A stretch of DNA of 64,000 bases from the NCBI GenBank assembly GCA_964594415.1, contig CAZQLQ010000001.1, positions 28,850 through 92,849 of the forward strand. The letters are read 5' to 3'. Below the pieces are notes generated by a model. The model worked only from the letters and a program-made list of their open reading frames with translations, was not told the origin of the DNA and did no database searches. Below are positions 4,288-63,108 of this stretch, piece by piece. This DNA comes from an uncultured Candidatus Saccharibacteria bacterium. Its GTDB lineage: Bacteria; Patescibacteriota; CPR2; UBA1875; CAIMLA01. Both the position numbers and the translations under genes were made by a program. Within the stretch, counting starts at the first letter, position 1; each line of letters begins with the position of its first letter.

Positions 4288-4289
4288 TT

Positions 4290-9416: not shown

Positions 9417-9433
9417 AACTATAATATGTATAT

Positions 9434-10210: not shown

Positions 10211-10213
10211 AGG

Positions 10214-12895: not shown

Positions 12896-12933
12896 AATAA
12901 AATAATTAAAACAACAAAGCGGAGGGTTAAACA

Positions 12934-15490: not shown

Positions 15491-15560
15491 AAAAAGCAGG
15501 TCTCTTGATCTGCTTACGGGTTTTCAAAATTTTCCCTGATATAATCAGGGTTCAATTGTA

Positions 15561-16365: not shown

Positions 16366-16445
16366 TTAAGTTGTCAAGATTACAAAATTTTAGTTTGTGG
16401 GTGGATTATAGCTTATTTTAGGTAAAATTTCAATCTAAATATGTA

Positions 16446-17186: not shown

Positions 17187-17206
17187 CTAATAAGGGCAGT
17201 TTAGCG

Positions 17207-17626: not shown

Positions 17627-17783
17627 AGGTAAATTATATATTATTTAGAAAATAATCAAATTCTTTTATTGAGTAATGTCTTACATTGAGATTATCATAT
17701 GTATTCTTCGCAATGTTGCTTGGCTCGTTCAGTTTTCGTTTAAGTCAACATTCTCAGTGCTAGTCTCAACTATATTAGGTGAT

Positions 17784-18707: not shown

Positions 18708-18835
18708 TAGTAAAATAATAATATAAATTATTATTTTATGTAATTAAAAATTTATAAGCCGTATTAAAAATTATTTAGTATTTAGTTAACCTCTCGATTT
18801 CATCACCATCCAAATATGTAAGCGAAAGATAACGT

Positions 18836-19168
18836 TTAAAGTTTTTGAATTAGGTCAAACCAGATAACTTTCACAGTAGTCGAAGGTCCGACATCTGTTT
18901 GATAATATTTGCTGTAAGTTTTGTACATTTCTTCATTCGATTCAAATGTCTCGTGTCCCAACTTGTCTTGTGCGTCCAAATCCACAAAAGATTTTTCAAT
19001 CACTTTTGTTATTTGTGCGTTAGCGAAGTGCCTTAGCGTTATGAACTCCCTTAACTCAATAACATCGCCTACGGTTAAATTTTTATCGTCGAAAAGCCGC
19101 CAGGTTGAATTTTTTTCACCTGAGAGAACTAATGGTATTAAGTAGCTGCGAAATTTAACTATTTTCAT
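18836..19168 (-). CDS. ASCH-domain (PUA-like) protein
   Basis: MKIVKFRSYLIPLVLSGEKNSTWRLFDD..GDVIEL is typical of the ASCH/YqfB-like fold. The longer track ORF reaching 19456 overlaps tRNA-like repeats, so I trimmed it to the internal ATG at 19166-19168. Confidence 0.6.
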   Translation of the reverse strand: MKIVKFRSYLIPLVLSGEKNSTWRLFDDKNLTVGDVIELREFITLRHFANAQITKVIEKSFVDLDAQDKLGHETFESNEEMYKTYSKYYQTDVGPSTTVKVIWFDLIQKL

Positions 19169-19240
19169 TATTCTCAAATAGTAACAGAAAATTATTATAT
19201 AGAAAAATATAATTAGTTCTGTACTTTTTAGAACGGTTAA

Positions 19241-19470
19241 GTCGTGGGAGTAGCGGCAAGCCGCTATCACCGTTATCAAATTAACTTCTTTTAATATCAC
19301 TTTTTTATTTTTGCTTTTATCTAACTTGTTATTTATGTTCACGACTGGGGTTCTAAGCCCCGGATCTACAGAAACAAAAACTCCACCGAAGTGGAGTCCT
19401 TGTTTCTGGCAGTCCCAAGGGGAGTCGCTGGCTTGCCAACTTCTCACCGCTATCAAATCAACTTAACTAT
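19241..19470 (-). repeat. decayed tandem copies of the tRNA-Glu 3' end plus its terminator module
   Basis: 19416-19436 is identical to tRNA-Glu 3' positions 19596-19616 (tggcagtcccaaggggagtcg). It is followed, in minus sense, by the hairpin GGACTCCAC-TTCG-GTGGAGT-TTTTTGTTT. A more degraded copy lies near 19241-19290 (..gatagcggcttgccgctactcccacgac). Confidence 0.6.
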
Positions 19471-19595
19471 GCTAATTTCTTGATTGTGCTATCTATTTTA
19501 CGTGTAAAAACATGCTATTTCTGTTCACTACAGGGGTTCGCCATCCCCTGAAACTAAAAAGACCGCGATCTACGCAAGGTATATCTCGGCCTTTT

Positions 19596-19670
19596 TGGCA
19601 GTCCCAAGGGGAGTCGAACCCCTGTTACCAGGATGAAAACCTGGCGTCCTAACCACTAGACGATGGGACC
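19596..19670 (-). tRNA. tRNA-Glu (anticodon TTC)
   Basis: The reverse complement folds as a 75-nt cloverleaf: GGTCCCA..anticodon loop TTTTCAT..T-arm AGGGG-TTCGACT-CCCCT..TGGGACT-G-CCA. Confidence 0.88.
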
Positions 19671-19796
19671 ATAATTTAATAGGATTTATTAACTTGAAAA
19701 TTATAGCAGATTTAGTTGTTAATTTCAATATTTTACTTTCGTTATAACTTTGAAAAAATCCTTTAATTTTTTTTTGGTAAAGCATAAAATTAATAG

Positions 19797-21764
19797 ATGA
19801 GGAGGATGTCTATGGGAGAAGAACAAAATGAAGTTCTGGTAAAGCTGAATTTAATATCTGATAGATTGGATTCTCTTGAAGGGCGGATTTCTTTGCTAGA
19901 AAAGGATAGTAATGGCAAGGTTAACGAACCTATACCTCAAAATGAATTGGCTATGAATTCATCAAATGGTGAAAAATTGGAGAGCCATAAAAAGCAGAAT
20001 AGCATTCTTGATAGGCAAATAAGCGCTGGCGGGTGTATATCAATGATAGCTGCCATAATTTTGGTTCCGATGTTTTTATCGTCTTATACCCTAAGAGGCC
20101 TAGCTCTGCCGGTATTATTAATTTTAGGTTATCTTGTTTTTAAAGATTTAAAGTCGCAAGGCTCTTTTAAAACGACCCAAAAAATAGCATCTTACGAGCC
20201 AGATAGGGTTGAGAGAGAGGTTGCTATTGACAGTCAAAAACCAAAGGAAAGCTTCGAAGTTCAGCTTGGACAACATTTCTTTAGTAAATTAGGGATTGTG
20301 GCTCTAGTAATAGGTATAGCTTTATTCTTAATTTATTCGCTTCAATATTTTGAAGCAATGGGAAAGGTTTGTCTTGGTTATCTCTCTTCATTAGTCTTGA
20401 TCACCTTTGGCTATTTTCTTGAAAAAAAATATTCAAGATACGGACAACTACTTTTAGGAGGGGGTGTAGCTGTTACGTATTTTACAACTTATGCTGCACA
20501 TTTTTTCCCAGTTACAAAAATTATAAATAACCAAACCACTGCTCTTGGACTACTTACGTTAATTAGCTTGTCTTATTTGCTCTATATGTTGCGTTACAAA
20601 TCAGAAATAATGGCAGGGATTGCTCTGCTTTTAGTTTTCTTAACTGCAAATCTTGGAGATATAAAATCTTTCTCATTGGTAATGTTAATGATTTTTCTGA
20701 CTGTTGCAGTGATTATTTCTTCGGTTAAGAAATGGAAATTTAATTTGCTTCTTTCATTGGTACTAAACTACTTAACTGTTTTTAGGTGGATTGTTGACTC
20801 AAGCGGATATCCCATTCCCATAGACCAGTTTACTTTTATCCTGTCAATCATTACCATAAGCTACTCGCTATTTTCTCTCGGGGTTTATTTTGTTTATTCC
20901 TCTAGTGAAGGCGTTGAAGCAGAAAACGAAAAAGAAAGTACAGAAGTCATTGCTTTTACGATAATCAACTCAGTTATTTATTACGGATTTTTAGCTGCTA
21001 TATTTGATGCAAACTATCTAGAAGTAAACCAGCCTTTGATGTTATCTTTTAGTATTTTAAATATAGTACTTGCCTTTTTGTCGAGGTTTTTCAATATGAA
21101 GAAAAGTTCTGCAAAGGCATATTTAGGCATTGCAACCGTTTCAATGTTCGTATATATTTCTCTTGCGTTTTCTGATTTGAATTTAGTAGTTGGTTGGTTG
21201 TCTCTTGGAATGATTTACATGATATACGGGTTAATACTAGGGACGATACGTACCAGAGCCGTTGGAATGTTCATCATTGTGGCTTCATTTGTCGCTTTAG
21301 TTATTTCATTTTGGAATATCGAAGAAACCATTTTTAGGCTTACCTTGTTCGGCTTTGCAGCTCTTTTTGAAATATTAAGTCTTTTATTCTTGAATGCTAA
21401 ATTAAAAAATAGTGCCGGGGACTCCACCCTATATGACAGTTACTTACAAAATATTTTAGCAAGTTCTTCTGTTGTATCATTAGCTCTTATACCATGTTAC
21501 TTGGAATCTAAAGAATTTCTTACATTGTATTGGGGTATAATAGCCTTTGTTGTTGCTATTTTGGGTTTTGTATTCAATGATAAAACTTTTAGAAGATCCG
21601 GCTTGATTTTGTTGCTAATTACGGTTTTGAGATTGTTTGTAGTAGATTTGTCTAGTATGGATCCAATATTGAAAATAATTTCATTTTTAGTTTTGGGAGT
21701 AATCTTACTGGCTATTTCATTTGGATATACTAAGTATAAAGACGAAATAAGGAGATACTTATGA
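19797..21764 (+). CDS. large polytopic membrane protein with an N-terminal coiled coil (DUF2339-like?)
   Basis: 655 aa with more than 15 predicted TM helices. No catalytic motifs. Confidence 0.5.
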   Translation: MRRMSMGEEQNEVLVKLNLISDRLDSLEGRISLLEKDSNGKVNEPIPQNELAMNSSNGEKLESHKKQNSILDRQISAGGCISMIAAIILVPMFLSSYTLRGLALPVLLILGYLVFKDLKSQGSFKTTQKIASYEPDRVEREVAIDSQKPKESFEVQLGQHFFSKLGIVALVIGIALFLIYSLQYFEAMGKVCLGYLSSLVLITFGYFLEKKYSRYGQLLLGGGVAVTYFTTYAAHFFPVTKIINNQTTALGLLTLISLSYLLYMLRYKSEIMAGIALLLVFLTANLGDIKSFSLVMLMIFLTVAVIISSVKKWKFNLLLSLVLNYLTVFRWIVDSSGYPIPIDQFTFILSIITISYSLFSLGVYFVYSSSEGVEAENEKESTEVIAFTIINSVIYYGFLAAIFDANYLEVNQPLMLSFSILNIVLAFLSRFFNMKKSSAKAYLGIATVSMFVYISLAFSDLNLVVGWLSLGMIYMIYGLILGTIRTRAVGMFIIVASFVALVISFWNIEETIFRLTLFGFAALFEILSLLFLNAKLKNSAGDSTLYDSYLQNILASSSVVSLALIPCYLESKEFLTLYWGIIAFVVAILGFVFNDKTFRRSGLILLLITVLRLFVVDLSSMDPILKIISFLVLGVILLAISFGYTKYKDEIRRYL

Positions 21765-41239: not shown

Positions 41240-41760
41240 AAATTTTCTGTCATTCTGTCCGACGACTCCAATGAGTTCGTGTCGGACTCCGTTGGAGGAC
41301 TTGTCGAGGGATCTCATTTCTATTACTTTCTCCTTGATGAGAAAGTAATCAAAGAATCAAGAAAAACTGAACTCCTTTTTAAAAAGATTATTCTTTTTTC
41401 GATATATTATAAGGTTTTCCTAGAAAGAATAACTTTTTAAAATAGTCGGTCCTCGGGACGAACAGTTTTTCAAGGGGTTTATTGTTCGAACGAATGTGAA
41501 AACTACCAGGAAAGAGAACTTCCCACTTCGTTCGAAGAATATTGTCCGAATGCAATGAGAACTGTCTTGTAACTTCTCACTCTGTTCGAAGAATATTGTT
41601 CGAGGCGAAGCCGAGAACTACTTTTTTGTCTGTCTTTTTGTCATCCTCGCCTCCCTGTCATTCTGAGCGAAGTCGAAGAATCTCAACCACTTGTCATCCT
41701 CGCGAACGCGGGGATCTATTATCCTCCTTATCACTTTCTCTTGAAATAAAGTAGCGCAAA
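41240..41760. repeat. GC-rich hairpin repeat island, same family as 420-800
   Basis: 41249-41314 is ~85% identical to 634-698. It contains hairpin units gtcattctgagcgaagtcgaagaatctc and gtcATCCTCGCGaaCGCGGGGATct. The 70-aa ORF at 41542-41754 is probably spurious. Confidence 0.6.
41358..41469 (+). repeat. 112-bp direct repeat, copy 1 (pairs with 41764-41875)
   Basis: Identical to copy 2 except for one mismatch (aact vs acct). Confidence 0.85.
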
Positions 41761-41763
41761 GTT

Positions 41764-41875
41764 CAAGAAAAACTGAACTCCTTTTTAAAAAGATTATTCT
41801 TTTTTCGATATATTATAAGGTTTTCCTAGAAAGAATACCTTTTTAAAATAGTCGGTCCTCGGGACGAACAGTTTT
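41764..41875 (+). repeat. 112-bp direct repeat, copy 2
   Basis: See copy 1. The two copies bracket the hairpin-repeat island. Confidence 0.85.
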
Positions 41876-41949
41876 CCGGGGGAATTTTTCAAAATAAATT
41901 TAATTTCGTACACTATATTAATGACTAATTTGGCGTTATAATACTTGTT

Positions 41950-44106
41950 GTGAAAAATGTTTTAGAAGGACTAAACGAACAGCAGAGGGAAGCAGTTCTG
42001 GCCACAGAGGGGCCAGTTTTGATTTTGGCTGGTGCGGGAAGTGGAAAGACAAAGGCGCTTACACATAGAATTGCATATTTGATTTTAGAAAAAAGCGTCT
42101 TACCGCAAAATATTCTTGCAGTTACTTTCACAAATAAAGCAGCTAAAGAGATGTCAAGCAGGGTGGCTGCACTTATCGGTGCGAATTTTAATGTAAATAA
42201 TTATAAAGACTTTGGTATGCCAAGCGTCTTGCCGACAATGGGAACTTTTCATTCTATTTGCGCGAAAATCATGCGCGAAGATGGTCATTACTTAGGCTAT
42301 AAGAGAAGCTTTGCGATTTATGACGAGTCTGACAGTCAGTCAGCGATTAAACAAGCTATTCGGAGTATGTCTGCAGAAGACAACAAGATCTCGGTCCAGA
42401 CTATTAAATCATTTATTTCGGGAGCGAAGAATGAACTCATGGATTCTGACAAATATGCGTCCATGGCAACTGGTTATGTGCAAGAATTTGTGGCACAAGT
42501 ATACCCTAAGTATCAAGAAATATTGAAGAGAAACAATGCTCTAGATTTTGACGACCTGCTAATGCAAACGATCATTCTCTTTATGAAGTTTCCGGAGGTT
42601 TTGAGAAAATATCAATTGATTTGGAGATATATACACATCGACGAATATCAGGACACAAATCATGCACAATATATGTTTGCAAAGCTACTTGCAAAAGAGC
42701 ATAAAAATCTTTGCGTCGTCGGTGATGACTGGCAGTCCATTTATAGTTGGCGCGGAGCAAATTTTCGGAATATTTTAGACTTTGAGCGTGATTATCCAAA
42801 TGCTAAACTTGTCAAGCTAGAACAAAATTATCGTTCCACAAAAGTTATTTTAGATGCTGCACATCAAATAATTTCAAAAAATGAAAATAGAAGCGAAAAG
42901 AAACTTTGGACTGGAAACGAAACAGGATACCCGATAGTTCTAATCGATGCTTTGAATGAACAAGACGAGGGCAGATATATTATTAGAGAAACCGAAAGAT
43001 TAATACGCGAAGAAAATTATCGGTTAAATGATATTGTTATTTTATACAGGACTAATGCACAATCACGAGCAATAGAGGCAGAGCTTCTCAAGTTCAATGT
43101 GCCTTATCGTATTGTCGGCGGGTTTAGATTTTATGAACGCAAAGAAATCAAGGATATGATAGCATACCTCAGAGTTGTGAATTCTGATGATGACTGGGTG
43201 GCTTTTGAGCGTATTATTAATATTCCACCTCGGGGTATCGGTGCTGTTAGTCTAAAAAAACTTATTGATTTCGGCAGAGAAAATAATTTAACTATTTCTG
43301 AAACTCTCGAAAGAGTTAACGAACTTTCCTTAGGTTCCAAGATTATTATCGCGTTAAGCGATTTCGCTCGTACCTTAGAAGTTTTACGAAAATCGAGGAA
43401 AGTCGAAACCTTACCGGAATTAATCGAGCTAACTATTAAGAAGAGCGGATACGAGGCATTTTTAGATGACGGTAATATTACGAATGCGGAGCGCATAGAA
43501 AATTTGAAAGAATTGCTTTCGGTAGCGGCTGAATATGTTTCAAACTATGGAGATTCAAATTTGGAAAACTTCTTGGAGGAGATATCTCTTGTCGCTGACA
43601 TAGATAACTGGAATCCGACAGAAGAGGCAATTACTCTGATGACCCTTCATGCAGCAAAAGGACTTGAATTTAGGGCGGTATTTTTGATTGGCATGGAGGA
43701 GAATCTTTTCCCACACGCAAATTCATCTTTTGATCCTATGCAGTTAGAAGAAGAAAGAAGACTTTGCTATGTAGGTTTTACCAGAGCAAAAGAACGGCTG
43801 TATCTTACTCTCGCTAATAGCAGGCTACTTTACGGGAGAACTCAGTCGAATTCTCCTAGCAGGTTTCTTGCGGACATACCAGCTGGGATTATTACCGGTT
43901 ATGAGTCACTATTTAAGAAAGATGTAAATGATGTACCGGAAGAAGCGATTAGCGGTTATTTTAATTCCGGTGATCTTGTTTCGCATAAGGAATTTGGCAA
44001 GGGCAAGGTAACTGCGATTGACGGAGATGAAATTACTGTAATTTTTGAGAATTATGGAACTAAATGGCTCTCACTTTCTTATGCAAAATTGAAAAAAGTT
44101 AAGTAG
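41950..44106 (+). CDS. pcrA: ATP-dependent DNA helicase PcrA/UvrD family
   Basis: Walker A ILAGAGSGKT and the UvrD helicase motifs; 718 aa. Confidence 0.9.
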   Translation: MKNVLEGLNEQQREAVLATEGPVLILAGAGSGKTKALTHRIAYLILEKSVLPQNILAVTFTNKAAKEMSSRVAALIGANFNVNNYKDFGMPSVLPTMGTFHSICAKIMREDGHYLGYKRSFAIYDESDSQSAIKQAIRSMSAEDNKISVQTIKSFISGAKNELMDSDKYASMATGYVQEFVAQVYPKYQEILKRNNALDFDDLLMQTIILFMKFPEVLRKYQLIWRYIHIDEYQDTNHAQYMFAKLLAKEHKNLCVVGDDWQSIYSWRGANFRNILDFERDYPNAKLVKLEQNYRSTKVILDAAHQIISKNENRSEKKLWTGNETGYPIVLIDALNEQDEGRYIIRETERLIREENYRLNDIVILYRTNAQSRAIEAELLKFNVPYRIVGGFRFYERKEIKDMIAYLRVVNSDDDWVAFERIINIPPRGIGAVSLKKLIDFGRENNLTISETLERVNELSLGSKIIIALSDFARTLEVLRKSRKVETLPELIELTIKKSGYEAFLDDGNITNAERIENLKELLSVAAEYVSNYGDSNLENFLEEISLVADIDNWNPTEEAITLMTLHAAKGLEFRAVFLIGMEENLFPHANSSFDPMQLEEERRLCYVGFTRAKERLYLTLANSRLLYGRTQSNSPSRFLADIPAGIITGYESLFKKDVNDVPEEAISGYFNSGDLVSHKEFGKGKVTAIDGDEITVIFENYGTKWLSLSYAKLKKVK

Positions 44107-44187
44107 GCTTTTTTCTTTACGTAGGGATAATAGATTGTTATTATCTATATTAGGTATTAGATTTTTAAAACCTTGGAGGGCAAAGGG

Positions 44188-47100
44188 TTGTTTGGATATA
44201 AATTTAATAATTTATATATAAATGCTTGTTCTAATATAAAAAATTATAAAGTTACAAAAAAGCTTGAATATCTTACGGTATTTATATTAGTTCTTAGTAT
44301 GCTTAGCTTTCAAGCATACTCATCAACAGAACTCAGGAAATATTTATTTGGTGCTGGGAATGCATTTGCTGGTATTGAAAACGTTAGCGTTGATGTTGGT
44401 GAGGAAGATACGTGCGTAGTGAGAAGTGATGGCACGGTTTGGTGTTGGGGCTGGAACATGTATGAGAACCGCCTAGGAATACCTACTGTCGAAGGGATGT
44501 TTACTAAAGACGCACTTACACCAATTCAAGTAGTGGGTCCTGGAGGTATTGGATATCTAAATAACGTCAAGACGGTAGAAATAGGAGAAGGCCATACTTG
44601 TGCTTTGAAGAATGATGGTACTGTCTGGTGTTGGGGATATAACTATGAGGGAGAACTCGGTGATAATATGAACGAAGAATATAGTCGGACGCCTGTGCAG
44701 GTTATGGGTGCCGGTGGGGTAGGATTCTTAAGTGATATTGTTGAGATAACTATAGGTTCCGATGCTTTCTCTACTTGTGCTTTGAAGAATGATGGTACTG
44801 TCTGGTGTTGGGGATATAACTGGGCTGGTGAGCTTGGAAACGGTTTGGCTGACGTTCAAAGTAATGTTCCTATCCAGGTTGTCGGTCAGGGTGGTTTGGG
44901 GTATCTAACTAATGTGCGTTCAATATCGATGGGAGAAAATACCACTTGCGCAGCAAAAAACGACGGTACCGTATGGTGTTGGGGTAGTAATTTCGGGGGC
45001 GAACTAGGAAATGGGACGGAAAGTGTTGACAGCTATACCCCGATACAGGTAGTTGGAGTTGGGGGTACGGGGTATTTGCAAAACATCAAGTCAGTCGCGC
45101 TAGATTTTTACTCTTGTGCTTTATCGAACGAAAACACGGTTTTTTGCTGGGGTTATGGTAGTGACGGCGAATTGGGGAATGGACAAAATGTTGATAGTTA
45201 TTCGCCAGTTCAAGTTCTCGGAGTAGGCGGCGACGGATATCTGACGGACGTAAAGAAAATTGGGGTCGGGCAAGGTTTTGCATGTGCTTTGAAAAATGAT
45301 GGAACAGTGAATTGCTGGGGTAGTAATTGGTTTGGAGACGGAGCGCTAGGGGATGGTACTTCAAATGACAGTAATACCCCAGTACAGGTAAAAGACCATA
45401 GCGGTAGCGGAAGTCTTACCGGAATTACTGATTTAGATGTTGGATTTGGAGGTGTTGCGTCAATTAGTAACGATGGGCGGATTTATTTGTGGGGTGATTA
45501 TACTCTTGGTAATGGTACTTGGAACACATCCTTATTGCCAACCGCGGTTTTGTATCAAGGTGAAATTACTAGCTACTTAGATAATGTAATATCTCTTAAC
45601 GTTGGCTCTAATCTTCAGTCTTGTGTAATCAAATCGGATGGTTCATTGTTATGTTGGGGCGTATCTCAATCTATTCTAGAGTCCATTTATCCGAAGAAAA
45701 TTCCAGGCCCTAACGGACTTGGATACATGGATAGTGTGAGATCGGTTGATTGGGGAAACGAACATAGTTGTGCGGTCAAAACTGATGGAACCGTATGGTG
45801 TTGGGGAACGAATGCCTATGGCCAACTAGGAGATGAAAGCTACTCGGATAGTTATACACCCGTCCAAGTGGTAGGCGTTGGAGGAACAGGTTATCTAACC
45901 GATGTAGAAACTGTAACAACTGGACGACGATTTTCTTGTGCGCTTAAAACTGATGGTACGGTTTACTGTTGGGGATGGGGGTATAGAGGTATACTAGGTA
46001 ATAATTCTACAAATAACTCAAATACACCCGTCCAGGTGGTAGGCGTTGGAGGAACAGGTTATCTGACTAATATACTTGATGTTGATACTTTTTGGTTACA
46101 TACTTGCGCAATTAGCTCAAGTGGTAGTGCATATTGTTGGGGTGACAACGCGAATTCCAAGCTAGGAGGAACTGCTAGTGCCTACAGCTCTACGCCAGTG
46201 CAAGTTTATGGTACAGGCGGTGTTGGATATCTTGGCAATATTGATAAAATCGATACCATGGTTTCTAGCTCATGTGCTACATTGAGCGATGGAACCGTTT
46301 GGTGTTGGGGATACAATGGAGGAGGTCAGTTAGGGGACAATACGACTGCTCAACGGGATTATCCAGTTCAGGTTCATGGGGTGAATAACCTAGGTTATTT
46401 GCAGAACGTTCAAGAAACTAGCGGAGGCTGGAATCATAACTGTGCACTTACATTTGACGGACTTGTATATTGTTGGGGAAGAAATCAGGAAGGAGAGCTA
46501 GGTATAAATACTATTATTAATAGCCTTACGCCAGTGCAGGTATTGGGAAATAATGGCGTTGGAGTCTTGGAAAATATTATTGAGATTTCTTCAGGATATG
46601 ATTATTCATGTGCTCTTAATAATAATGGATATGTTTATTGTTGGGGTGGTAATGACGACTACGCTCTTGGAATTGGTTGGAGCCTAGATAAGTTGGTGCC
46701 TGTACGAGTTGCTTCTGAAATAGAGATTTGCGAATTTAGTGCTCTAGGGAGCTCTCTTTGTGCAGATAGCGGATCGTCACCGCCAACCACTATCCCTCCC
46801 ACCACCACTCCTCCTACTCCAACTACAACCAAACCAAAATCATCTCCTCTAACTCCTTTTCAACCCGTAGACGAGAATATCGCAGACGAAACTACACCTA
46901 CAACCAGTACCACAACCACGACAACCAGAGAAGAAACAGCAGAAAAGTCAAACTCTTCTTCGGAGAGCGATTCAGATAATAATAATCATGACGGATTCTT
47001 TAAAACCATTAAATCCTATGTCGTAGCTTTTCTTTCTACCTCATCCGATGCAATAGCTAAAGTAAACTACAAGATAACCTCATACTTCACTTCTTCAAAG

Positions 47101-48414
47101 GGTCTTGGTAACTTTTTGGGGATGGTTCCTCCTGCCCTAGCCAGAGTGTTCCCTTGGCTACTTTTCGCCCTCCTTATCTATCTTATCCGCAGATTAATCA
47201 AACAAACCAAGGAAGAAGGTAAGAACGCTCAAGAGATGATAAAGCTTATCGATCTCGAGAAAGCTATCGGAGTCCAGAAAGAAAACTTCGTCAGATTATC
47301 TTCTCATTACCTAAGAACCCCGTTAACAATCATCTCTACTGGCATTGATCTTATGTTTACCCTGGATAAAGTTGAGAAAGAAAAGCAAACCGACCTCTCA
47401 AACGCCCTTAAAGACCTAAATACCAAAGTAGAGGAGATCTTTTCTGATATATCCTCTAATAGATATCTAAACGAGATAACTATTCCAGATATTAAAGAGG
47501 AGAAGATCAAGATTTATGCCTCTCCTTACTTATGGCTACCGATCATCCTAATCGGAGGTATCTCCCTTCTTACCAACTACTTGTTTATCAATATCGCCAA
47601 GATTGATCTCTACACTATTAATCTTATGACCGAAGTAGCTGCCTTTCTCGTTCTTGCTCAGCTTTTCTTTTCTAACTTCAGGAAACGCCAAACCCAAAGG
47701 ATCAAGAATCAAAAATATGAGAAAGAGCTTAAGCTTCAGAAAGTCATCGATGATGCTAGAAATACCTTCATGGAGCAAGTTGCAAGGGATGTTAATGCAA
47801 AAATGATTCCGTTAGAAACCGTCCTTCCTTCGGTAGGTCAAACAGAACACAAGACTGAGATATACAAAGGCCTCTCCGACCTAAAGCAGATGATCTACAA
47901 ATTCACGCTGATTAGCAGTATCAAATCCGAAGGAGCCCTTATTAAACCGAGAGAAATTGACCTATACCGAACAGTCAACGATTATATCAAGGCTAGGCAA
48001 GAAGATATAAAGGCAAAGGGGATTAAGGTTAAACTTTCTAAATCGGACACAATCATAATAACTGACAAAGATAAGTTCTTGTTCATTATCTTCAGTATCA
48101 TCGATAACGCTATCAAGTTTTCTAAAGACAAAGGAAGCATCATTATCAACTGGGAGACAGTAGATAATCGAACTACCATAACCGTGGAAGACGACGGAAT
48201 TGGAATGACTGAAGAAGCCAAAGACCTTCTCTTTAAGCCTTTCGTTAGGGGAACATCTACCCTTAGATTTGATTATGAAGGCATGGGTACTAACCTTTAT
48301 ATCGCCAAACAGATAGCCAATTATTTAAACGGAGATATTTCCCTAGAATCAGAGATAGATAAAGGAACGAAGGTGAGTGTGGTTTCTTGTAGTTATGGTT
48401 ATAGGGTTGATTGA
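44188..48414 (+). CDS. giant sensor histidine kinase with an extracytoplasmic RCC1-repeat beta-propeller array
   Basis: A TTG start 7 nt after GGAGGG, by analogy with the paralog. A signal anchor is followed by more than 13 RCC1-like blades (GTVWCWGxNxxGELGxG...TPVQV), then a Thr/Pro linker, then TM helices. The C-terminus carries HisKA-like SSHYLRTPLTII and HATPase_c EDDGIGM..GMGTNLYIAKQI. Confidence 0.75.
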   Translation: MFGYKFNNLYINACSNIKNYKVTKKLEYLTVFILVLSMLSFQAYSSTELRKYLFGAGNAFAGIENVSVDVGEEDTCVVRSDGTVWCWGWNMYENRLGIPTVEGMFTKDALTPIQVVGPGGIGYLNNVKTVEIGEGHTCALKNDGTVWCWGYNYEGELGDNMNEEYSRTPVQVMGAGGVGFLSDIVEITIGSDAFSTCALKNDGTVWCWGYNWAGELGNGLADVQSNVPIQVVGQGGLGYLTNVRSISMGENTTCAAKNDGTVWCWGSNFGGELGNGTESVDSYTPIQVVGVGGTGYLQNIKSVALDFYSCALSNENTVFCWGYGSDGELGNGQNVDSYSPVQVLGVGGDGYLTDVKKIGVGQGFACALKNDGTVNCWGSNWFGDGALGDGTSNDSNTPVQVKDHSGSGSLTGITDLDVGFGGVASISNDGRIYLWGDYTLGNGTWNTSLLPTAVLYQGEITSYLDNVISLNVGSNLQSCVIKSDGSLLCWGVSQSILESIYPKKIPGPNGLGYMDSVRSVDWGNEHSCAVKTDGTVWCWGTNAYGQLGDESYSDSYTPVQVVGVGGTGYLTDVETVTTGRRFSCALKTDGTVYCWGWGYRGILGNNSTNNSNTPVQVVGVGGTGYLTNILDVDTFWLHTCAISSSGSAYCWGDNANSKLGGTASAYSSTPVQVYGTGGVGYLGNIDKIDTMVSSSCATLSDGTVWCWGYNGGGQLGDNTTAQRDYPVQVHGVNNLGYLQNVQETSGGWNHNCALTFDGLVYCWGRNQEGELGINTIINSLTPVQVLGNNGVGVLENIIEISSGYDYSCALNNNGYVYCWGGNDDYALGIGWSLDKLVPVRVASEIEICEFSALGSSLCADSGSSPPTTIPPTTTPPTPTTTKPKSSPLTPFQPVDENIADETTPTTSTTTTTTREETAEKSNSSSESDSDNNNHDGFFKTIKSYVVAFLSTSSDAIAKVNYKITSYFTSSKGLGNFLGMVPPALARVFPWLLFALLIYLIRRLIKQTKEEGKNAQEMIKLIDLEKAIGVQKENFVRLSSHYLRTPLTIISTGIDLMFTLDKVEKEKQTDLSNALKDLNTKVEEIFSDISSNRYLNEITIPDIKEEKIKIYASPYLWLPIILIGGISLLTNYLFINIAKIDLYTINLMTEVAAFLVLAQLFFSNFRKRQTQRIKNQKYEKELKLQKVIDDARNTFMEQVARDVNAKMIPLETVLPSVGQTEHKTEIYKGLSDLKQMIYKFTLISSIKSEGALIKPREIDLYRTVNDYIKARQEDIKAKGIKVKLSKSDTIIITDKDKFLFIIFSIIDNAIKFSKDKGSIIINWETVDNRTTITVEDDGIGMTEEAKDLLFKPFVRGTSTLRFDYEGMGTNLYIAKQIANYLNGDISLESEIDKGTKVSVVSCSYGYRVD
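46811..48385 (+). repeat. 1575-bp block nucleotide-identical to 61523-63097 (linker, TM and kinase module of both RCC1 kinases)
   Basis: Identical protein translations are seen on three independent frames (track ORFs 47307/47548/47982 equal 62019/62260/62694). The offset is constant at 14712 bp. Identity breaks after 'gtgagtgtggttt'. Confidence 0.85.
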
Positions 48415-56191: not shown

Positions 56192-56419
56192 ATGAAGGAA
56201 AAATTTATAACAACAAATGAGCTTGCCAATGATGCTTCAAAGATTTTGCGTAACTTAAAAAAAGGCGAAGGGACAGTAATCTTAAGGTATTCAGAACCGG
56301 TAGGCGTGCTTATATCTTACGAAGATTATAAGAGGATTGAAAATTTAGAAGTTGAGTTTATTCAAGAATGCAAAACATGTTTGGCCAATACCAAGAGAAT
56401 GAGAAAGGATTTAGAATAA
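56192..56419 (+). CDS. Phd/YefM-like antitoxin-fold protein (orphan)
   Basis: ..GTVILRYSEPVGVLISYEDYKRIENLE resembles the Phd/YefM N-terminal fold. No toxin gene follows. Confidence 0.45.
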   Translation: MKEKFITTNELANDASKILRNLKKGEGTVILRYSEPVGVLISYEDYKRIENLEVEFIQECKTCLANTKRMRKDLE

Positions 56420-57639
56420 TGATTTATATGGATCATGCAGCCACTACGCCAGTCAGTAAAAAGGTTTTTGAGGAAATGGAGCCTTATTTTTCTAAGTTTT
56501 TTGGTAATGCTTCGAGCGTGTATTCTGTAGGCTGTAAAGCAAGAGCAGTTGTAGAAAATTCTCGCGAAAAAATTGCTGGCTTGATTGGTGCTGAAAAACC
56601 GGGAGAAGTTATTTTCACAAGCGGGGCAACTGAAGCAAACAATTTGGCAATAAAAGGTGTAGCTTTTTATGTATCACAAGTCTTGAAGAAAAAACCGCAT
56701 ATCATTATTTCTTCAATTGAACATCATTGTGTTTTGGATACTGCGAAATACCTTGAAAAGTATTTTGGCTTTGAGGTAACATATTTGCCGGTGAATAAAG
56801 AAGGGGTTGTCGACCTAGAATTTTTGAAAAATTCAATAAAAGACAACACGGTAATGGTTTCTGTTATGTACGGGAACAATGAAATGGGGGCAGTAGAACC
56901 GATTGCTGAAATTGGGAATATTGTAAAAGAAGCGAAAGAAAAGAGAAAAGAAGAAGATTCATTGCCAATTATTTTTCATACCGATGCGGTTCAGGCATTT
57001 CAGTACATCGATATCGATGTGAATAAGCTTGGCATAGATATGCTTTCTCTTACAGCTCATAAATTTTATGGCCCTAAAGGCATTGGAATTTTATACGTGA
57101 AGGATGGAGTTAGATTTTTGCCGCAACAGCAAGGGGGTTCTCAAGAGCAGGGACGTAGAGCAGGTACCGAAAATGTTCCCTACATTGTCGGAATGTCTAC
57201 CGCGATGCAGGAAGCTGTGAGAAACCGTAAAAAAAGCACAGAGGAAGTAAAAAAACTTAGAGATTATATGATAAAAAGAATTCTTACAGAGATACCAAAT
57301 GTCGAACTTATTGGGCCAAAAGATGCTGAAAACAGATTGCCGCACATTTCAAATTTTTTATTCAAAGGAGTTGAGGGCGAGTCTATTCTTCTCAATCTGG
57401 ATATATTCAGTATATGTGCGTCATCTGGTTCTGCCTGCACATCCGGATCGTTGGAATCTTCTCACGTGACAAGAGCGATGGGGTATTCTCATATGGAGTC
57501 ACATGGTGCTATCCGTTTCAGCTTTGGTGCTCTTTCCAGCGAAGACGACATAGACAAACTAATGCAGTATTTGCCGAATATCGTAGAAAAATTAAGGGCG
57601 ATGAGCCCGATAAAAGGAGATATATGCCAATCGCAATAA
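56419..57639 (+). CDS. iscS: cysteine desulfurase (IscS/NifS family)
   Basis: The PLP-Lys motif SLTAHKFYGPKG and active-site SSGSACTSGS. I chose the start MIYMDHAATTPV. Confidence 0.9.
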   Translation: MIYMDHAATTPVSKKVFEEMEPYFSKFFGNASSVYSVGCKARAVVENSREKIAGLIGAEKPGEVIFTSGATEANNLAIKGVAFYVSQVLKKKPHIIISSIEHHCVLDTAKYLEKYFGFEVTYLPVNKEGVVDLEFLKNSIKDNTVMVSVMYGNNEMGAVEPIAEIGNIVKEAKEKRKEEDSLPIIFHTDAVQAFQYIDIDVNKLGIDMLSLTAHKFYGPKGIGILYVKDGVRFLPQQQGGSQEQGRRAGTENVPYIVGMSTAMQEAVRNRKKSTEEVKKLRDYMIKRILTEIPNVELIGPKDAENRLPHISNFLFKGVEGESILLNLDIFSICASSGSACTSGSLESSHVTRAMGYSHMESHGAIRFSFGALSSEDDIDKLMQYLPNIVEKLRAMSPIKGDICQSQ

Positions 57640-58235
57640 ATTATAAAATTTGTGACAATTTCTCTGAGTGTCCATGTATAGCAGCTTGCCCTTGCGACGT
57701 GATTTACTATGATGAAATAAAGGGGAAATTAGTAGCCGATAACAGTAAATGCAAGTCTTGCGGCAAATGTGTTGGGGCGTGTGAGATTGGTGCAATTTCA
57801 TTAGCAAAAACCGATGAAGAGCTAACGACAATTTTAAAAGAGATAGAAGACGATCCTAGAAAAGCTTCGGATTTATTTGTCGATAGGTACGGTGCCCAGC
57901 CGATTCTTGAAACATTTTTAATAGAAGAAATAAATTTAGAAAAGAGATTAGACAATACTAATAAATTGGTTGTGGTTGAGCTATTTGACGAAAACTCGAT
58001 CCAATGCCTACTTCACTCAATACCGATAAAAGACTTATTTGACATAGAAGATTATGAGTATTATAGAGTTGAGATAAAGAATAGTGATCTTACAAGCAAA
58101 TATTCAGTAAAAAATTTGCCTTCACTGTTATTCTTTAAAAAGGGGAATCTGTTTGACAAAATTGAGGGATATTATGCCGATACTCAAGTAAATGAGTTTA
58201 AGCAAAAAATTAAAACTATCGTTAAGGAAAGATAA
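57624..58235 (+). CDS. 4Fe-4S ferredoxin-domain protein fused to a thioredoxin-like (no CxxC) domain
   Basis: I chose the internal ATG at 57624. CPCIAACPCD and CKSCGKCVGACE motifs. It sits between iscS and iscU. Confidence 0.5.
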   Translation: MPIAINYKICDNFSECPCIAACPCDVIYYDEIKGKLVADNSKCKSCGKCVGACEIGAISLAKTDEELTTILKEIEDDPRKASDLFVDRYGAQPILETFLIEEINLEKRLDNTNKLVVVELFDENSIQCLLHSIPIKDLFDIEDYEYYRVEIKNSDLTSKYSVKNLPSLLFFKKGNLFDKIEGYYADTQVNEFKQKIKTIVKER

Positions 58236-58695: not shown

Positions 58696-61600
58696 GTGCT
58701 GTCAATTAAGCCCAGACTGGCTAGTTTATATAAGAAAAAATGTTCTGATATAAAAGATTTTAAAGTTACTAAAAAATTTGAATATTTTGTATTTTTTGCT
58801 TTTTTTATCAGTTTGTTAAGTTCTCAAGCTTATTTACCTGCAATCTTAAAATCTGATCTGCTCAAGATAAAAACTGTTCTTGCTGACGGAACGCCTGTTC
58901 AAGTTTCTGCTGGTAATGGTCATGCCTGCATTGTCAAAAGCGATGGAACTGTCTGGTGTTGGGGGGCAAATTATTATGGACAGTTAGGTGATAGTACGGA
59001 TGAGACTCGACATACCCCCATCCAGGTTGTTGGAGTGGGTGGAATCGGATTTTTGACAGACATCGTTGCTGTAAATGCTGGATGGCAGCACACTTGTGGA
59101 CTTAAAAATGACGGAACTGTTTATTGCTGGGGAGATAATGCGGATGGAGAACTTGGAAACAATGATTATACAGATAGTTATGTTCCTGTTCAGGTACTAG
59201 GAGTTGGCGGAACAGGATTTCTAAATGATATTAAGGCTATCGGAGCCGGGTACAATGACTCTTGTGCACTAACAAACAGTGGCTTGATGTATTGTTGGGG
59301 AGATAATGCGGATGGCCAGTTAGGGGACAATTCAACGACTGGAAGCCCTGTTCCTGTACAGGTGGTAGGTGCCGGAGGCGCAGGATTTCTAAATGATATT
59401 AGTAAGATTGAGCTTGGTCTTGGTCATGCATGTGCGGTTAAGAATGACGGAACGGCTTATTGTTGGGGGGATAGTTATACCCCTTTGGGTGACGGCACTT
59501 CGAATAGTAGTCAAGTCCCTGTACAGGTGGTAGGCGTTGGCGGAGTCGGGTTCTTAAGCAATATAGCAGATATTACTACGGACGACGGTTTTTCGTGCGC
59601 TTTAACAAATGATGGCTATGTATATTGTTGGGGGGATAACGGTGATGGCCAACTTGGAGATGGTAATGGCGGAACTTACGGGGATGAATCACTTACTCCT
59701 GTTCAGGTTCTTGGTGTGGGAGGTGTGGGGCTTCTCTCAAATATTCAGCACATAAGCAATGGAACTATGCATGCCTGTGCATTAGACTCAGGAGGTAATG
59801 TATATTGTTGGGGATGGAAAGAAGAAACTGGCACTAATGACGGTTCCTGGGATCCGCAAACTACACCAATACAGACACATGGCTTAGAAGATGTAGGGTT
59901 TCTATCGGATATCTTTACTTTCGCCGCAGGAGATTATTTTACTGTAGCAATTGATACAGCCGGAACTGTATATAGTTGGGGTGAAAATTATGAAGGGGAT
60001 CTCGGTGATTGGACCGAAGTTGATAGATATGTTCCTGTTAAGGTGGTCTCAAGTGCTTCCTCGGCTGGGTATCTAGATAATGTCGTAGGCGTTGGGACGG
60101 CTGATGATGGATCCTGTATTATTAAGGATGACGGAACAGTTTGGTGCTGGGGGAATGGCGAACCCGTGCCTGTCCAATTGAGGGGACCAGGAGGAGTGGG
60201 TTTCTTTGAGGATGCCGTTTCGATTAGCAAAAGTGCAATGGGTAATCATTTTTGTGTTGTTAAAAGCGACGGAACGGTATGGTGTTGGGGGAGTAACTCA
60301 GATGGACAACTCGGTGATGGTACAACAACAAGTAGCTATGATTATCCTATACAAGTTGTCGGAGAAGGTGGTGTGGGGTATTTGACAGATGTTAAGATGG
60401 TCTCGGGTGCGTATTTCGGTACTTGTGCTCTTAAAAATGATGGTACGGTGTGGTGCTGGGGGTATAATGGCGGCGGTGCATTAGGAAATAACAGCACTAC
60501 TGATGTGTATACTCCGGTGCAAGTACATGGAGTTAATGACGTCGGATTTTTAACTGACATAAAATATATTTCAACTGGCGGATATCACGGCTGTGCAATA
60601 AAAACGGATGATTCTCTATACTGTTGGGGAAGTAATAGTAGCGGTCAACTTGGTGATAATACGACTTTAAATAAATTGACTCCCATCCAAGTCTTAGGAG
60701 CTGGCGGCATTGGTAATCTTACCGATGTCAGAAGCGTGGCGATGGGGTGGCTGCATACATGCGCTTCAAAAAACGACGGTACTGCTTATTGTTGGGGGAG
60801 AAATTATGCGGGTCAAGTCGGCAATGGCGTAATCGGCGGATTCGGTTCTCATGTAGATGCTCCTAGCCAAGTTATAGGAGTAGGAGGGGTAGGATATTTA
60901 ACAGGCGTTGATACGGTAGCAGCATCCAGAGACGGGTCTTATGCTAAGATGCTTGATGATACGGCGTTTTATTGGGGAGGTACCCCTACACAGCGTTCAG
61001 GTGTTGAAGACGAGCAGTATCTTGTTAATGTTGCTGATATTGCAGGAGGTTATTCGCATCTAGTTTCTCTTTTGAATGACGGAACGGTATATTGTACGGG
61101 TTGGGGTAGTGGTAACGGATGGGACAGCGATTCTTTGGTTTGGTCAGGTATTAATGCATGTTATTTCAATGCCTATGGAGACCCAATTTGCTCTAGTGGT
61201 CCGTCTCCTTCACAAAGTGCTGCCAATTCTGTCATTTCAGGCAGTGAAACAGGTAACTTAGTTACGATTACTGTAACAATCCACGATACGGACGATAATC
61301 CATATACTTCAGGTGGTGACACGGTCACAGTCCTCATAACTGGAGCAAATCCATCTACTCCATCAGTAATAGATAATAGTGACGGAACCTATACTGTAAC
61401 TTATACTTCAACAAGTGACGGTACTGACATAGTAACAGCTACTTTAAACGGAGTTGCAATTGGTAATGATACCGATGGGGTAAGTGACGGAGTCTATCAT
61501 TTGAATGTTACTGCTCCTTTTTCTCCTACTCCAACTACAACCAAACCAAAATCATCTCCTCTAACTCCTTTTCAACCCGTAGACGAGAATATCGCAGACG

Positions 61601-63108
61601 AAACTACACCTACAACCAGTACCACAACCACGACAACCAGAGAAGAAACAGCAGAAAAGTCAAACTCTTCTTCGGAGAGCGATTCAGATAATAATAATCA
61701 TGACGGATTCTTTAAAACCATTAAATCCTATGTCGTAGCTTTTCTTTCTACCTCATCCGATGCAATAGCTAAAGTAAACTACAAGATAACCTCATACTTC
61801 ACTTCTTCAAAGGGTCTTGGTAACTTTTTGGGGATGGTTCCTCCTGCCCTAGCCAGAGTGTTCCCTTGGCTACTTTTCGCCCTCCTTATCTATCTTATCC
61901 GCAGATTAATCAAACAAACCAAGGAAGAAGGTAAGAACGCTCAAGAGATGATAAAGCTTATCGATCTCGAGAAAGCTATCGGAGTCCAGAAAGAAAACTT
62001 CGTCAGATTATCTTCTCATTACCTAAGAACCCCGTTAACAATCATCTCTACTGGCATTGATCTTATGTTTACCCTGGATAAAGTTGAGAAAGAAAAGCAA
62101 ACCGACCTCTCAAACGCCCTTAAAGACCTAAATACCAAAGTAGAGGAGATCTTTTCTGATATATCCTCTAATAGATATCTAAACGAGATAACTATTCCAG
62201 ATATTAAAGAGGAGAAGATCAAGATTTATGCCTCTCCTTACTTATGGCTACCGATCATCCTAATCGGAGGTATCTCCCTTCTTACCAACTACTTGTTTAT
62301 CAATATCGCCAAGATTGATCTCTACACTATTAATCTTATGACCGAAGTAGCTGCCTTTCTCGTTCTTGCTCAGCTTTTCTTTTCTAACTTCAGGAAACGC
62401 CAAACCCAAAGGATCAAGAATCAAAAATATGAGAAAGAGCTTAAGCTTCAGAAAGTCATCGATGATGCTAGAAATACCTTCATGGAGCAAGTTGCAAGGG
62501 ATGTTAATGCAAAAATGATTCCGTTAGAAACCGTCCTTCCTTCGGTAGGTCAAACAGAACACAAGACTGAGATATACAAAGGCCTCTCCGACCTAAAGCA
62601 GATGATCTACAAATTCACGCTGATTAGCAGTATCAAATCCGAAGGAGCCCTTATTAAACCGAGAGAAATTGACCTATACCGAACAGTCAACGATTATATC
62701 AAGGCTAGGCAAGAAGATATAAAGGCAAAGGGGATTAAGGTTAAACTTTCTAAATCGGACACAATCATAATAACTGACAAAGATAAGTTCTTGTTCATTA
62801 TCTTCAGTATCATCGATAACGCTATCAAGTTTTCTAAAGACAAAGGAAGCATCATTATCAACTGGGAGACAGTAGATAATCGAACTACCATAACCGTGGA
62901 AGACGACGGAATTGGAATGACTGAAGAAGCCAAAGACCTTCTCTTTAAGCCTTTCGTTAGGGGAACATCTACCCTTAGATTTGATTATGAAGGCATGGGT
63001 ACTAACCTTTATATCGCCAAACAGATAGCCAATTATTTAAACGGAGATATTTCCCTAGAATCAGAGATAGATAAAGGAACGAAGGTGAGTGTGGTTTTAA
63101 ACAAATAA
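58696..63108 (+). CDS. giant sensor histidine kinase with an RCC1-repeat beta-propeller array plus a Big-like domain (paralog of 44188-48414)
   Basis: A GTG start 7 nt after GGAGGG. An RCC1-like repeat array (GTVWCWGxNxxGQLGDG), then an Ig-like segment (TITVTIHDTDDNPYTSGGDTVTV..). The linker/TM/HisKA/HATPase module is identical to the paralog. Confidence 0.75.
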   Translation: MLSIKPRLASLYKKKCSDIKDFKVTKKFEYFVFFAFFISLLSSQAYLPAILKSDLLKIKTVLADGTPVQVSAGNGHACIVKSDGTVWCWGANYYGQLGDSTDETRHTPIQVVGVGGIGFLTDIVAVNAGWQHTCGLKNDGTVYCWGDNADGELGNNDYTDSYVPVQVLGVGGTGFLNDIKAIGAGYNDSCALTNSGLMYCWGDNADGQLGDNSTTGSPVPVQVVGAGGAGFLNDISKIELGLGHACAVKNDGTAYCWGDSYTPLGDGTSNSSQVPVQVVGVGGVGFLSNIADITTDDGFSCALTNDGYVYCWGDNGDGQLGDGNGGTYGDESLTPVQVLGVGGVGLLSNIQHISNGTMHACALDSGGNVYCWGWKEETGTNDGSWDPQTTPIQTHGLEDVGFLSDIFTFAAGDYFTVAIDTAGTVYSWGENYEGDLGDWTEVDRYVPVKVVSSASSAGYLDNVVGVGTADDGSCIIKDDGTVWCWGNGEPVPVQLRGPGGVGFFEDAVSISKSAMGNHFCVVKSDGTVWCWGSNSDGQLGDGTTTSSYDYPIQVVGEGGVGYLTDVKMVSGAYFGTCALKNDGTVWCWGYNGGGALGNNSTTDVYTPVQVHGVNDVGFLTDIKYISTGGYHGCAIKTDDSLYCWGSNSSGQLGDNTTLNKLTPIQVLGAGGIGNLTDVRSVAMGWLHTCASKNDGTAYCWGRNYAGQVGNGVIGGFGSHVDAPSQVIGVGGVGYLTGVDTVAASRDGSYAKMLDDTAFYWGGTPTQRSGVEDEQYLVNVADIAGGYSHLVSLLNDGTVYCTGWGSGNGWDSDSLVWSGINACYFNAYGDPICSSGPSPSQSAANSVISGSETGNLVTITVTIHDTDDNPYTSGGDTVTVLITGANPSTPSVIDNSDGTYTVTYTSTSDGTDIVTATLNGVAIGNDTDGVSDGVYHLNVTAPFSPTPTTTKPKSSPLTPFQPVDENIADETTPTTSTTTTTTREETAEKSNSSSESDSDNNNHDGFFKTIKSYVVAFLSTSSDAIAKVNYKITSYFTSSKGLGNFLGMVPPALARVFPWLLFALLIYLIRRLIKQTKEEGKNAQEMIKLIDLEKAIGVQKENFVRLSSHYLRTPLTIISTGIDLMFTLDKVEKEKQTDLSNALKDLNTKVEEIFSDISSNRYLNEITIPDIKEEKIKIYASPYLWLPIILIGGISLLTNYLFINIAKIDLYTINLMTEVAAFLVLAQLFFSNFRKRQTQRIKNQKYEKELKLQKVIDDARNTFMEQVARDVNAKMIPLETVLPSVGQTEHKTEIYKGLSDLKQMIYKFTLISSIKSEGALIKPREIDLYRTVNDYIKARQEDIKAKGIKVKLSKSDTIIITDKDKFLFIIFSIIDNAIKFSKDKGSIIINWETVDNRTTITVEDDGIGMTEEAKDLLFKPFVRGTSTLRFDYEGMGTNLYIAKQIANYLNGDISLESEIDKGTKVSVVLNK
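61523..63097 (+). repeat. second copy of the 1575-bp identical block
   Basis: See 46811-48385. Confidence 0.85.

Follow-up and report, generated by a model that had tools for sequence, protein, structure and literature searches.

Two sensor histidine kinase genes on a 64-kb stretch of contig CAZQLQ010000001.1 join strongly diverged extracellular sensors to a signalling module that is identical in its DNA. We refer to the whole stretch analysed as the window, with positions counted from its first nucleotide, and to the genes as A and B; gene A lies 14.7 kb upstream of gene B. The initial annotation of the window had called the two signalling modules identical, and the identity proves stronger than claimed: exact match extension delimits a block with 0/1575 nt differences (1575/1575 nt identical in DNA), including all synonymous sites and a low-complexity linker. 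The sensors, colinear throughout in a global alignment, have 42–45% amino-acid identity and ~51% nucleotide identity, and the proportion of synonymous differences (pS 0.76–0.79) is saturated. Divergence between A and B is a step function, with a saturated sensor on one side and an identical module on the other. The edges of the block are abrupt, with no residual similarity a few bases outside it on either side. We hold it probable that A and B are an orphan pair of RCC1 sensor kinases, only B with an immunoglobulin (Ig)-like domain, whose module has been homogenised by recent recombination, so that two extracellular cues would be passed to one partner. The genes and the two copies of the block are as follows.

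44173-48414, + strand: gene A, a paralogous RCC1 double-propeller sensor kinase without an Ig-like domain (listed as 1413 aa)
58696-63108, + strand: gene B, an RCC1 double-propeller, Ig-like and tandem-DHp (dimerisation and histidine phosphotransfer) sensor histidine kinase (1470 aa; open reading frame (ORF) list, upstream sequence, Pfam)
46811-48385, + strand: copy of the block in gene A (exact match extension)
61523-63097, + strand: copy of the block in gene B, spanning the linker, first transmembrane helix (TM1), DHp1, TM hairpin, DHp2 and ATPase domain
58786-58848, + strand: N-terminal membrane anchor of gene B (aa 31-51; hydropathy, charge counts)

Both proteins follow one plan, in which a Lys-rich tail and a membrane anchor are followed by 14 RCC1 blades, a Cys loop, a linker and the kinase module. 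Gene B starts with GTG just 3' of a GGAGG ribosome-binding site, and its product, which is identical to database protein P0121, carries a Lys/Arg-rich cytoplasmic tail before the anchor (9 Lys/Arg in aa 1–28). The leader/anchor regions of A and B are 48% identical over 46 aa (E = 3e-9) and are missing from the other RCC1 proteins compared. The C-terminal tails of the two genes differ, both in frame, one ending in …VVSCSYGYRVD and the other in …VVLNK before the stop codon; the gene B protein stops 2 residues past the ATPase domain. In gene A the listed TTG start overlaps a GGAGG Shine–Dalgarno sequence at 44175-44179, and the true start is probably the in-frame TTG at 44188, 8 nt after GGAGG, which would give a product of 1408 aa.

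Origin of the identical block

Identity at the level of DNA points to a recent recombination event rather than to conservation, and the 95% upper bound on divergence within the block is ~0.19%. We infer that the event, within this lineage, was either gene conversion or module transfer. Recent homologous gene conversion is the more economical account; it would have homogenised all of the region still similar enough to recombine. In a related lineage, L016, two tandem paralogous genes have modules whose DNA is 56% identical across the 483 nt that can be compared, and the L016 module is 53% identical to that of A and B. Because these tandem modules have diverged, the identity seen here is an event in this lineage and not a rule of the family. 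A scan of genome collections (species representatives) found no close relative, the nearest matches being ATPase domains only 33% identical. As direct repeats, the two block copies enclose the essential genes rsmA, rsmI, metG, tatD and iscS/nifU. Reciprocal crossing-over would probably be lethal, so that only non-reciprocal outcomes would survive.

A one-off capture of the module is unlikely, though it has evidence on its side. Here a 1.6-kb linker–kinase segment would have been duplicated and fused to an existing gene for an RCC1 surface protein that had lacked a kinase until then; the joining would have come about within the Pro/Thr-coding linker, through recombination that was illegitimate or microhomology-mediated. 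Scored against each other, the RCC1 arrays of A and B reach 645 bits, and they come just as close to stand-alone RCC1 surface proteins from other metagenome-assembled genomes (MAGs) of the candidate phyla radiation (CPR), namely Moranbacteria and Parcubacteria (631–652 bits), which are the nearest RCC1 sequence relatives (41–47% identity). Among the 120 best RCC1 homologs, only the database copy of gene B has a kinase domain. Moreover, the module family is promiscuous, being joined to many ectodomain types, and no homology is detectable just outside either edge of the block. Capture would, however, need two in-frame illegitimate junctions, and A and B have in common a private leader/anchor, the same 14 blades, colinearity and a Cys loop after the last blade (post-blade tails 42% identical by BLAST, E = 3e-5). 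These common traits argue that the two genes descend from one full-length RCC1-kinase ancestor. We take it that a complete RCC1 kinase was duplicated long ago, after which the sensors diverged to the level of the repeat consensus.

It is quite improbable that the identity is an artefact of assembly or polishing, in which the real modules are similar but non-identical, or only one exists, and the apparent identity comes from collapse to a consensus, repeat-aware scaffolding or polishing of a long-read assembly with short reads. The record is a metagenome-type contig of 234,769 bp, and short-read assemblers would not normally bridge a perfect 1575-nt direct repeat within one contig; the contigs of relatives P0001 and P0002 are very short and stop near the module boundary, as happens where repeats confuse an assembler. 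Yet unique sequence borders both copies on both sides in a colinear contig, and both sensors join the block in frame and lead to two distinct in-frame C-terminal tails. Collapse could lift an identity of ~98–99% to 100% but could not explain ~51% just outside the block.

Structure and divergence of the RCC1 sensors

The sensor region of gene B comprises three features.

58918-60105, + strand: RCC1 propeller 1, blades 1-7 (gene B aa 75-470; Pfam WD40_RLD/RCC1/RCC1_2, blade parsing, AlphaFold, Foldseek)
60106-61161, + strand: RCC1 propeller 2, blades 8-14, of which 13-14 are degenerate (gene B aa 471-822; Pfam, blade parsing, AlphaFold)
61162-61221, + strand: Cys-containing loop (C..F.A.G...C) after the last blade, common to A (global alignment)

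Pfam scores in gene B far exceed the cut-offs for RCC1 (260.9 bits; cut-off 21.7), RCC1_2 (335.3; 22) and WD40_RLD (574.8; 150), and the RCC1-type scores of gene A are similar. The AlphaFold model of the gene B ectodomain, built on a 40-sequence alignment, contains 14 four-stranded blades, with a predicted local distance difference test score (pLDDT) >90 across most of the RCC1 region. Foldseek matched single seven-bladed RCC1-like domains of UVR8, RPGR, HERC1/2 and RCC1 with E values down to 7.7e-31; fifteen matches to UVR8 have target template modelling scores (TM-scores) of 0.86–0.90 and a root-mean-square deviation (rmsd) of 2.6–5.2 Å. With 14 modelled blades and matches to seven-bladed domains, the sensor consists of two seven-bladed RCC1 propellers.

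The initial annotation had also described the sensors as divergent, with blades differing between the paralogs. The divergence is confirmed; paralog-specific blade classes are not, since position-matched blades of A and B have a mean identity of 44.7% compared with 42.3% for unmatched blades. The same blade matrix shows no positional orthology, blade swapping or foreign blades. A proposed contrast between GQLGDG and GELGNG repeats survives as a trend: gene A has five E-type and two Q-type motifs and gene B one E-type and five Q-type (5:2 versus 1:5), both types occur in both proteins, and the difference falls short of significance (Fisher p = 0.10).

Within gene A, two pairs of neighbouring blades (44595-44660 and 44772-44837; 45854-45906 and 46022-46074) are 89–91% identical in nucleotides over 53–66 nt, far above the 60–74% typical of other blade pairs. 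This suggests a recent intragenic duplication or conversion of blades.

An Ig-like domain present in gene B only

61222-61515, + strand: Ig-like domain (E-set, filamin/invasin-D3 type), gene B only (aa ~843-940; Pfam, PDB phmmer)
61261-61467, + strand: Pfam Invasin_D3 match inside gene B

The extra domain that the initial annotation had recognised in gene B as Ig-like of the Big type is indeed Ig-like; its assignment to the Big type does not hold. Residues 847–924 match Invasin_D3 (PF09134; 46.7 bits, cut-off 33) and Filamin (PF00630; 32.1, cut-off 26.9), whereas Big_1 scores 20.2 bits, under its cut-off of 34.9, and neither Big_2 nor Big_3 matches gene B at E <= 0.01 (Pfam). Gene A has no Ig-type Pfam match. 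The segment originally singled out, TITVTIHDTDD...ATLNGV, corresponds to gene B aa 857–921 and lies within the Invasin_D3 match. By phmmer against the PDB, the Ig segment comes closest to rod repeats of the filamin type in Dictyostelium gelation factor (1wlh, E = 3.9e-17), and a match to invasin itself (1cwv) is weak (E = 0.1). The AlphaFold model of the segment has seven strands at a pLDDT of 30–62, and no homolog in the alignment covers the segment. A word-based homology search with the segment gave no matches, and no donor of the domain was found inside the window. In the global alignment, the ~100-aa Ig segment of gene B stands cleanly opposite a short Pro/Thr stretch of gene A, 'SGSSPPTTIPPTTTPP'. 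The description of this segment as 'inserted' is unproven.

A signalling module with tandem DHp hairpins

Beyond the Ig-like domain, gene B continues into a linker and a module that occupies 61855-63102; the same tandem-DHp module occupies 47143-48390 of gene A, also on the + strand. Its parts in gene B are as follows.

61516-61833, + strand: low-complexity Thr/Ser/Pro/acidic extracellular linker of ~105 residues (gene B aa 941-1046; translation)
61855-61911, + strand: TM1, continuous with helix 1 of DHp1 (gene B aa 1054-1072; hydropathy, AlphaFold helix aa 1050-1127)
61912-62166, + strand: DHp1, a helical hairpin with a canonical H-box, SSHYLRTPLT (weak HisKA match, family alignment)
62017-62019, + strand: CAT codon of the putative phospho-acceptor His1108
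62236-62391, + strand: TM2-TM3 hairpin with a 12-residue outer loop (gene B aa 1181-1232; hydropathy, positive-inside charges, AlphaFold helices)
62392-62637, + strand: DHp2, a His-less hairpin continuous with TM3 and right before the ATPase domain (aa ~1233-1314; R1268 at the His position)
62659-63102, + strand: catalytic ATP-binding (CA, HATPase_c) domain with intact N, G1, F and G2 boxes (Pfam, box conservation, AlphaFold alpha/beta fold)

The ATPase domain is matched by Pfam HATPase_c at 71.6 bits (cut-off 26.4), and HisKA (PF00512) reaches 17.0 bits, under its cut-off of 26.9. An AlphaFold monomer model of the module (pLDDT 83.8, predicted TM-score 0.73) gives a helix order that agrees with hydropathy and the positive-inside rule. 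Unlike in a HisKA-type arrangement, the His-bearing DHp1 is not next to the CA domain, the TM hairpin and DHp2 lying between them. Alignment with the canonical kinase P0032 brings this out. The single DHp of P0032 aligns with DHp2 and CA of gene B (E = 4e-17), where gene B reads VARDV with Arg at the His position, and more weakly with DHp1 (E = 7e-7) and its intact H-box. The DHp2–CA part superimposes on the cytoplasmic core of HK853 (3dge, E = 3e-13; Foldseek). How an ATPase domain phosphorylates a His beyond a membrane hairpin is the mechanistic question that this layout poses.

The module belongs to a large family, which we delineated by exhaustive HMMER searches with a module profile, representatives being clusters at 50% identity. 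A word-based search recovered seven full-length relatives only. HMMER returned at least 150 representatives at E <= 1e-86, nearly all matching as one contiguous stretch over the module, and 10,767 at E <= 1e-30 with lengths of 367–4656 aa. Conservation was counted over 155 aligned members, including P0001-P0007 and P0241-P0387. The DHp1 His is present in 150/155 (and in 8/8 of a smaller alignment) and the H-box Pro in 148/155, whereas the corresponding 'His' column of DHp2 holds His in 0/155; the N, G1, F and G2 boxes are near-invariant (144–153/155). Judged from these alignments, the tandem-DHp layout is a conserved trait of this large family, for which neither Pfam nor NCBIfam offers a dedicated model. 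NCBIfam kinase models all score far under their cut-offs and cover only DHp2/CA, and neither NCBIfam nor the searchable literature yielded anything specific on a named family or an RCC1–kinase fusion, which is weak negative evidence.

Conservation of the His and of the N, G1, F and G2 boxes argues that the module is kinase-competent. We give little credence to the view that A and B are mainly adhesins or receptors on the surface of an episymbiont, with a cytoplasmic module that serves as pseudokinase or scaffold. It draws on the lack of His in the DHp that adjoins the ATPase domain, the sub-threshold HisKA score, the presence of the non-canonical kinases DivL and RetS among the Foldseek matches of the module, and ectodomains that resemble parts of adhesins. 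No cognate regulator is adjacent here or at family member P0004, which lies on a long contig and is likewise an orphan. An H-box His in 150/155 members together with near-invariant ATP-binding boxes would nevertheless be unexpected in a dead enzyme.

Ectodomains of the module family

Members of the family carry the module on varied ectodomains. Kelch propellers with InlB-B-repeat domains occur in L010, L012, P0003 and P0001 (in P0001 behind a frameshift), Vgb-lyase/Reg_prop-type propellers in L021, NHL propellers with fn3 domains in P0312, and Big_7 Ig domains in P0278, P0287 and P0274; P0304 has weak WD40-type propeller matches, under the cut-off. Many members are shorter, with ectodomains of ~200 residues. 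The order propeller(s), beta-sandwich domain(s), linker and TM1 is, from these domain matches, a recurring design of the family, to which B conforms and in which A lacks the beta-sandwich. The other 147 best module homologs have no RCC1 repeats, no counterpart of the gene B Ig segment and none of the gene B linker; gene A itself is missing from the best module homologs, probably because it falls into the cluster of B at 50% identity. The RCC1-propeller version of the family appears unique to this genome, and we know of no description of RCC1 propellers as sensor domains of kinases, nor did our searches find one.

Two loci of the family were noted in their own right. L016 (JGI contig Ga0265297_10000110, 281 kb) carries tandem giant genes at 1463-11383 and 11311-21252, encoding 3307 and >3314 aa. 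Beta-helix-like repeats and InlB-B-repeat domains occur in both, joined by Kelch-like repeats in the first, and both end in the module. At L004 (positions 1-800 of ENA contig NODE_75361, coverage ~2.7x), P0001 is called as a 442-aa kinase with a module 55% identical, and the frame upstream encodes InlB-B-repeat domains and a linker/TM1; within the low-complexity linker, a frameshift or an error in sequencing is read as splitting the gene.

A wider reading is possible, although we hold it only tentatively. The module may define a class of histidine kinase not yet described, with a duplicated DHp, widespread and habitually mounted on propeller/Ig ectodomains of up to ~4,600 aa, which could be a principal type of surface receptor in small-genome (CPR-like) bacteria. 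In the present genome, recombination would then hold two receptors on one output, possibly heterodimerising, while their sensors evolve freely.

Output and proposed mechanism

Specificity of histidine kinases for their regulators and for dimerisation resides in the DHp, as work on the rewiring of HK853/EnvZ-type kinases has established, and paralogous kinases normally diverge there, which keeps their pathways insulated. The DHp regions of A and B are identical, so the two would have the same partner(s), and A/B heterodimers would be permitted. That A and B feed one output, as the initial annotation proposed, is a reasonable inference from the sequences: the whole phospho-acceptor/dimerisation region is identical, and partner specificity should then be identical too; neither gene, however, has an adjacent response regulator. 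The window contains a single receiver domain, a stand-alone REC at 4335-4739 (- strand), ~40 kb away.

Sequence and modelling together show the chain of gene B running from a short cytoplasmic tail and anchor through an extracellular part of ~1000 residues to TM1 and DHp1, which bears His1108, then out and back through the TM hairpin to the His-less DHp-like hairpin and the ATP-binding domain. In the mechanism that we propose, by analogy with BT4663-type sensors, the propeller faces would bind ligands, probably glycans or proteins on the surface of a host or partner cell. On the same analogy, the Ig-like domain may act as a membrane-proximal spacer or dimerisation element and set the geometry by which movements of the propellers reach TM1 and DHp1. 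Recent recombination, whether gene conversion or module transfer, would have made the linker-to-ATPase segments of A and B identical, so that the two proteins share both their dimerisation surface and their specificity for response regulators. Different cues would then converge on one downstream partner, and A/B heterodimers might form. The interest of such an arrangement, with two inputs, one output and possible heterodimers, lies in an identical specificity region beneath sensors that diverged anciently. If the organism is an episymbiotic CPR bacterium, the A and B proteins are candidates for host-surface sensing.

Several points weigh against this reading of A and B as a homogenised pair with a common output. 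No response regulator adjoins either gene. Assembly or polishing may have raised the identity of the block to an exact one, and the scanned collections offer no close relative by which to tell gene conversion from one-off transfer. Saturation of synonymous sites means that dN/dS (the ratio of nonsynonymous to synonymous divergence) between A and B is not estimable. Assignment of the Ig-like fold in gene B rests on profiles, and the structure model of the segment is of low confidence. Loss of the domain from A is as plausible as its gain in B, so that polarity is not fixed, because related kinases commonly hold Ig/fn3-like domains between propellers and membrane. Access of the ATPase domain to His1108 across the TM hairpin and DHp2 is hypothetical, the model being that of a monomer. 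Finally, the suggestion in the initial annotation that the sensors diversified for different ligands is, on the ligand side, speculation with no significant support from blade motifs.

A simple old duplication with uniform divergence, in which the C termini are identical merely through kinase conservation, was the null hypothesis of the initial annotation and can appeal to the general conservation of kinase ATP-binding domains, but it is already refuted by 0/1575 DNA differences, synonymous sites and low-complexity linker included, next to a saturated sensor, and by family paralogs elsewhere (L016) that are only 56% identical in module DNA. Neither outcome that the initial annotation had named as refuting it occurs: an Ig-like match stands above threshold, divergence is step-like rather than uniform, and this step function supports the idea of modular sensors on one signalling module. 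The original observation was thus real and mostly accurate, and its interpretation is partly supported.

Genomic context

The window has ~38% G+C and small co-directional genes, and one of the nearer matches in the kinase search is annotated as Patescibacteria; together with the Moranbacteria/Parcubacteria labels of the nearest RCC1 relatives, this makes a CPR/Patescibacteria origin likely. Downstream of gene A lies an Rpf-like (G5/transglycosylase) gene, and downstream of gene B a membrane/CAP-like ORF. Promoter and terminator scans gave no more matches than expected by chance. At 10214-12895, 12934-14139 and 14117-15490 lie two further histidine kinases with an Ig-like protein between them. 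One of these kinases has a 7TM HisKA_7TM and PAS N terminus and the other is classical; the Ig-like protein matches Big_13 at 26.3 bits, just under the 27-bit cut-off. The total for the window is four kinases and one receiver.

Two other features were noted. A direct repeat of ~142 nt (41342-41483 and 41748-41889; 90% identical over 185 aligned columns) lies in an ORF-poor gap at 41240-41950, upstream of a UvrD/PcrA-like gene. It contains a near-identical core of ~115 nt and an internal hairpin (RNA fold z = -2.4), matches nothing in Rfam, lacks a convincing ORF and may be a small repeated intergenic element. The IscS/NifS-like ORF at 56368-57639 overlaps the next listed ORF (57414-58235) by 226 nt; the real start of the latter is probably further downstream, the overlap being an artefact of mechanical ORF listing. 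This second ORF has Cys-rich ferredoxin-like motifs and, by visual impression only, a thioredoxin-like C-terminal part.

Comparison with known systems

The closest functional parallel is with the Bacteroides hybrid sensors BT4663, BT4673 and BT3049, transmembrane kinases in which two seven-bladed propellers are followed by a membrane-proximal all-beta domain, the order also found in gene B. In BT4663, sugars bind the entry faces of the propellers, the Y_Y_Y domain serves as spacer and dimerisation element, and a scissor-like closing is passed on to the TM helices (PMC5121618, PMC8534201). The building blocks differ. The propellers of gene B are RCC1 and not Reg_prop, and its beta-sandwich is of the filamin/invasin-D3 type and not Y_Y_Y; indeed, neither Reg_prop (PF07494) nor Y_Y_Y (PF07495) has a Pfam match at E <= 0.01 in A or B. 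Whereas BT4663-type proteins have a fused receiver and AraC domain, gene B has no Pfam match to Response_reg or a helix-turn-helix (HTH) domain. It also differs in its ~105-residue low-complexity linker, its tandem DHp with a TM hairpin and its probable CPR host. The likeness is one of functional analogy rather than membership, and suggests that the reading of large surface ligands has been solved convergently.

The sensors have the same RCC1 Pfam profiles (PF00415, PF13540, PF25390) and seven-bladed fold as proteins with an RCC1-like domain (RLD), among them RCC1, UVR8, HERC, RPGR and the bacterial 'alpha-tubulin suppressor-like' proteins of CPR MAGs. A and B differ from these in having two RLDs in tandem fused to a histidine kinase, a combination found in no other protein among the 120 best RCC1 or 150 best module homologs. 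With class I HisKA kinases such as HK853, EnvZ, WalK and PhoR the module has in common a His-x-L-R-T-P-L H-box, the N, G1, F and G2 boxes and an HK853-like DHp–CA core; it departs from them in that a TM hairpin and a second, His-less DHp-like hairpin lie between the His-bearing DHp1 and the ATPase domain.

An identical tract inside diverged paralogs of one genome is also the mark of interlocus gene conversion and concerted evolution (cases in PMC6053082). Here, by contrast, only the signalling half is homogenised, and the related lineage L016 shows no homogenisation. A pair of sensor kinases is of a known kind; the RCC1 double-propeller sensor of this pair, with its DNA-identical module, is to our knowledge unprecedented.

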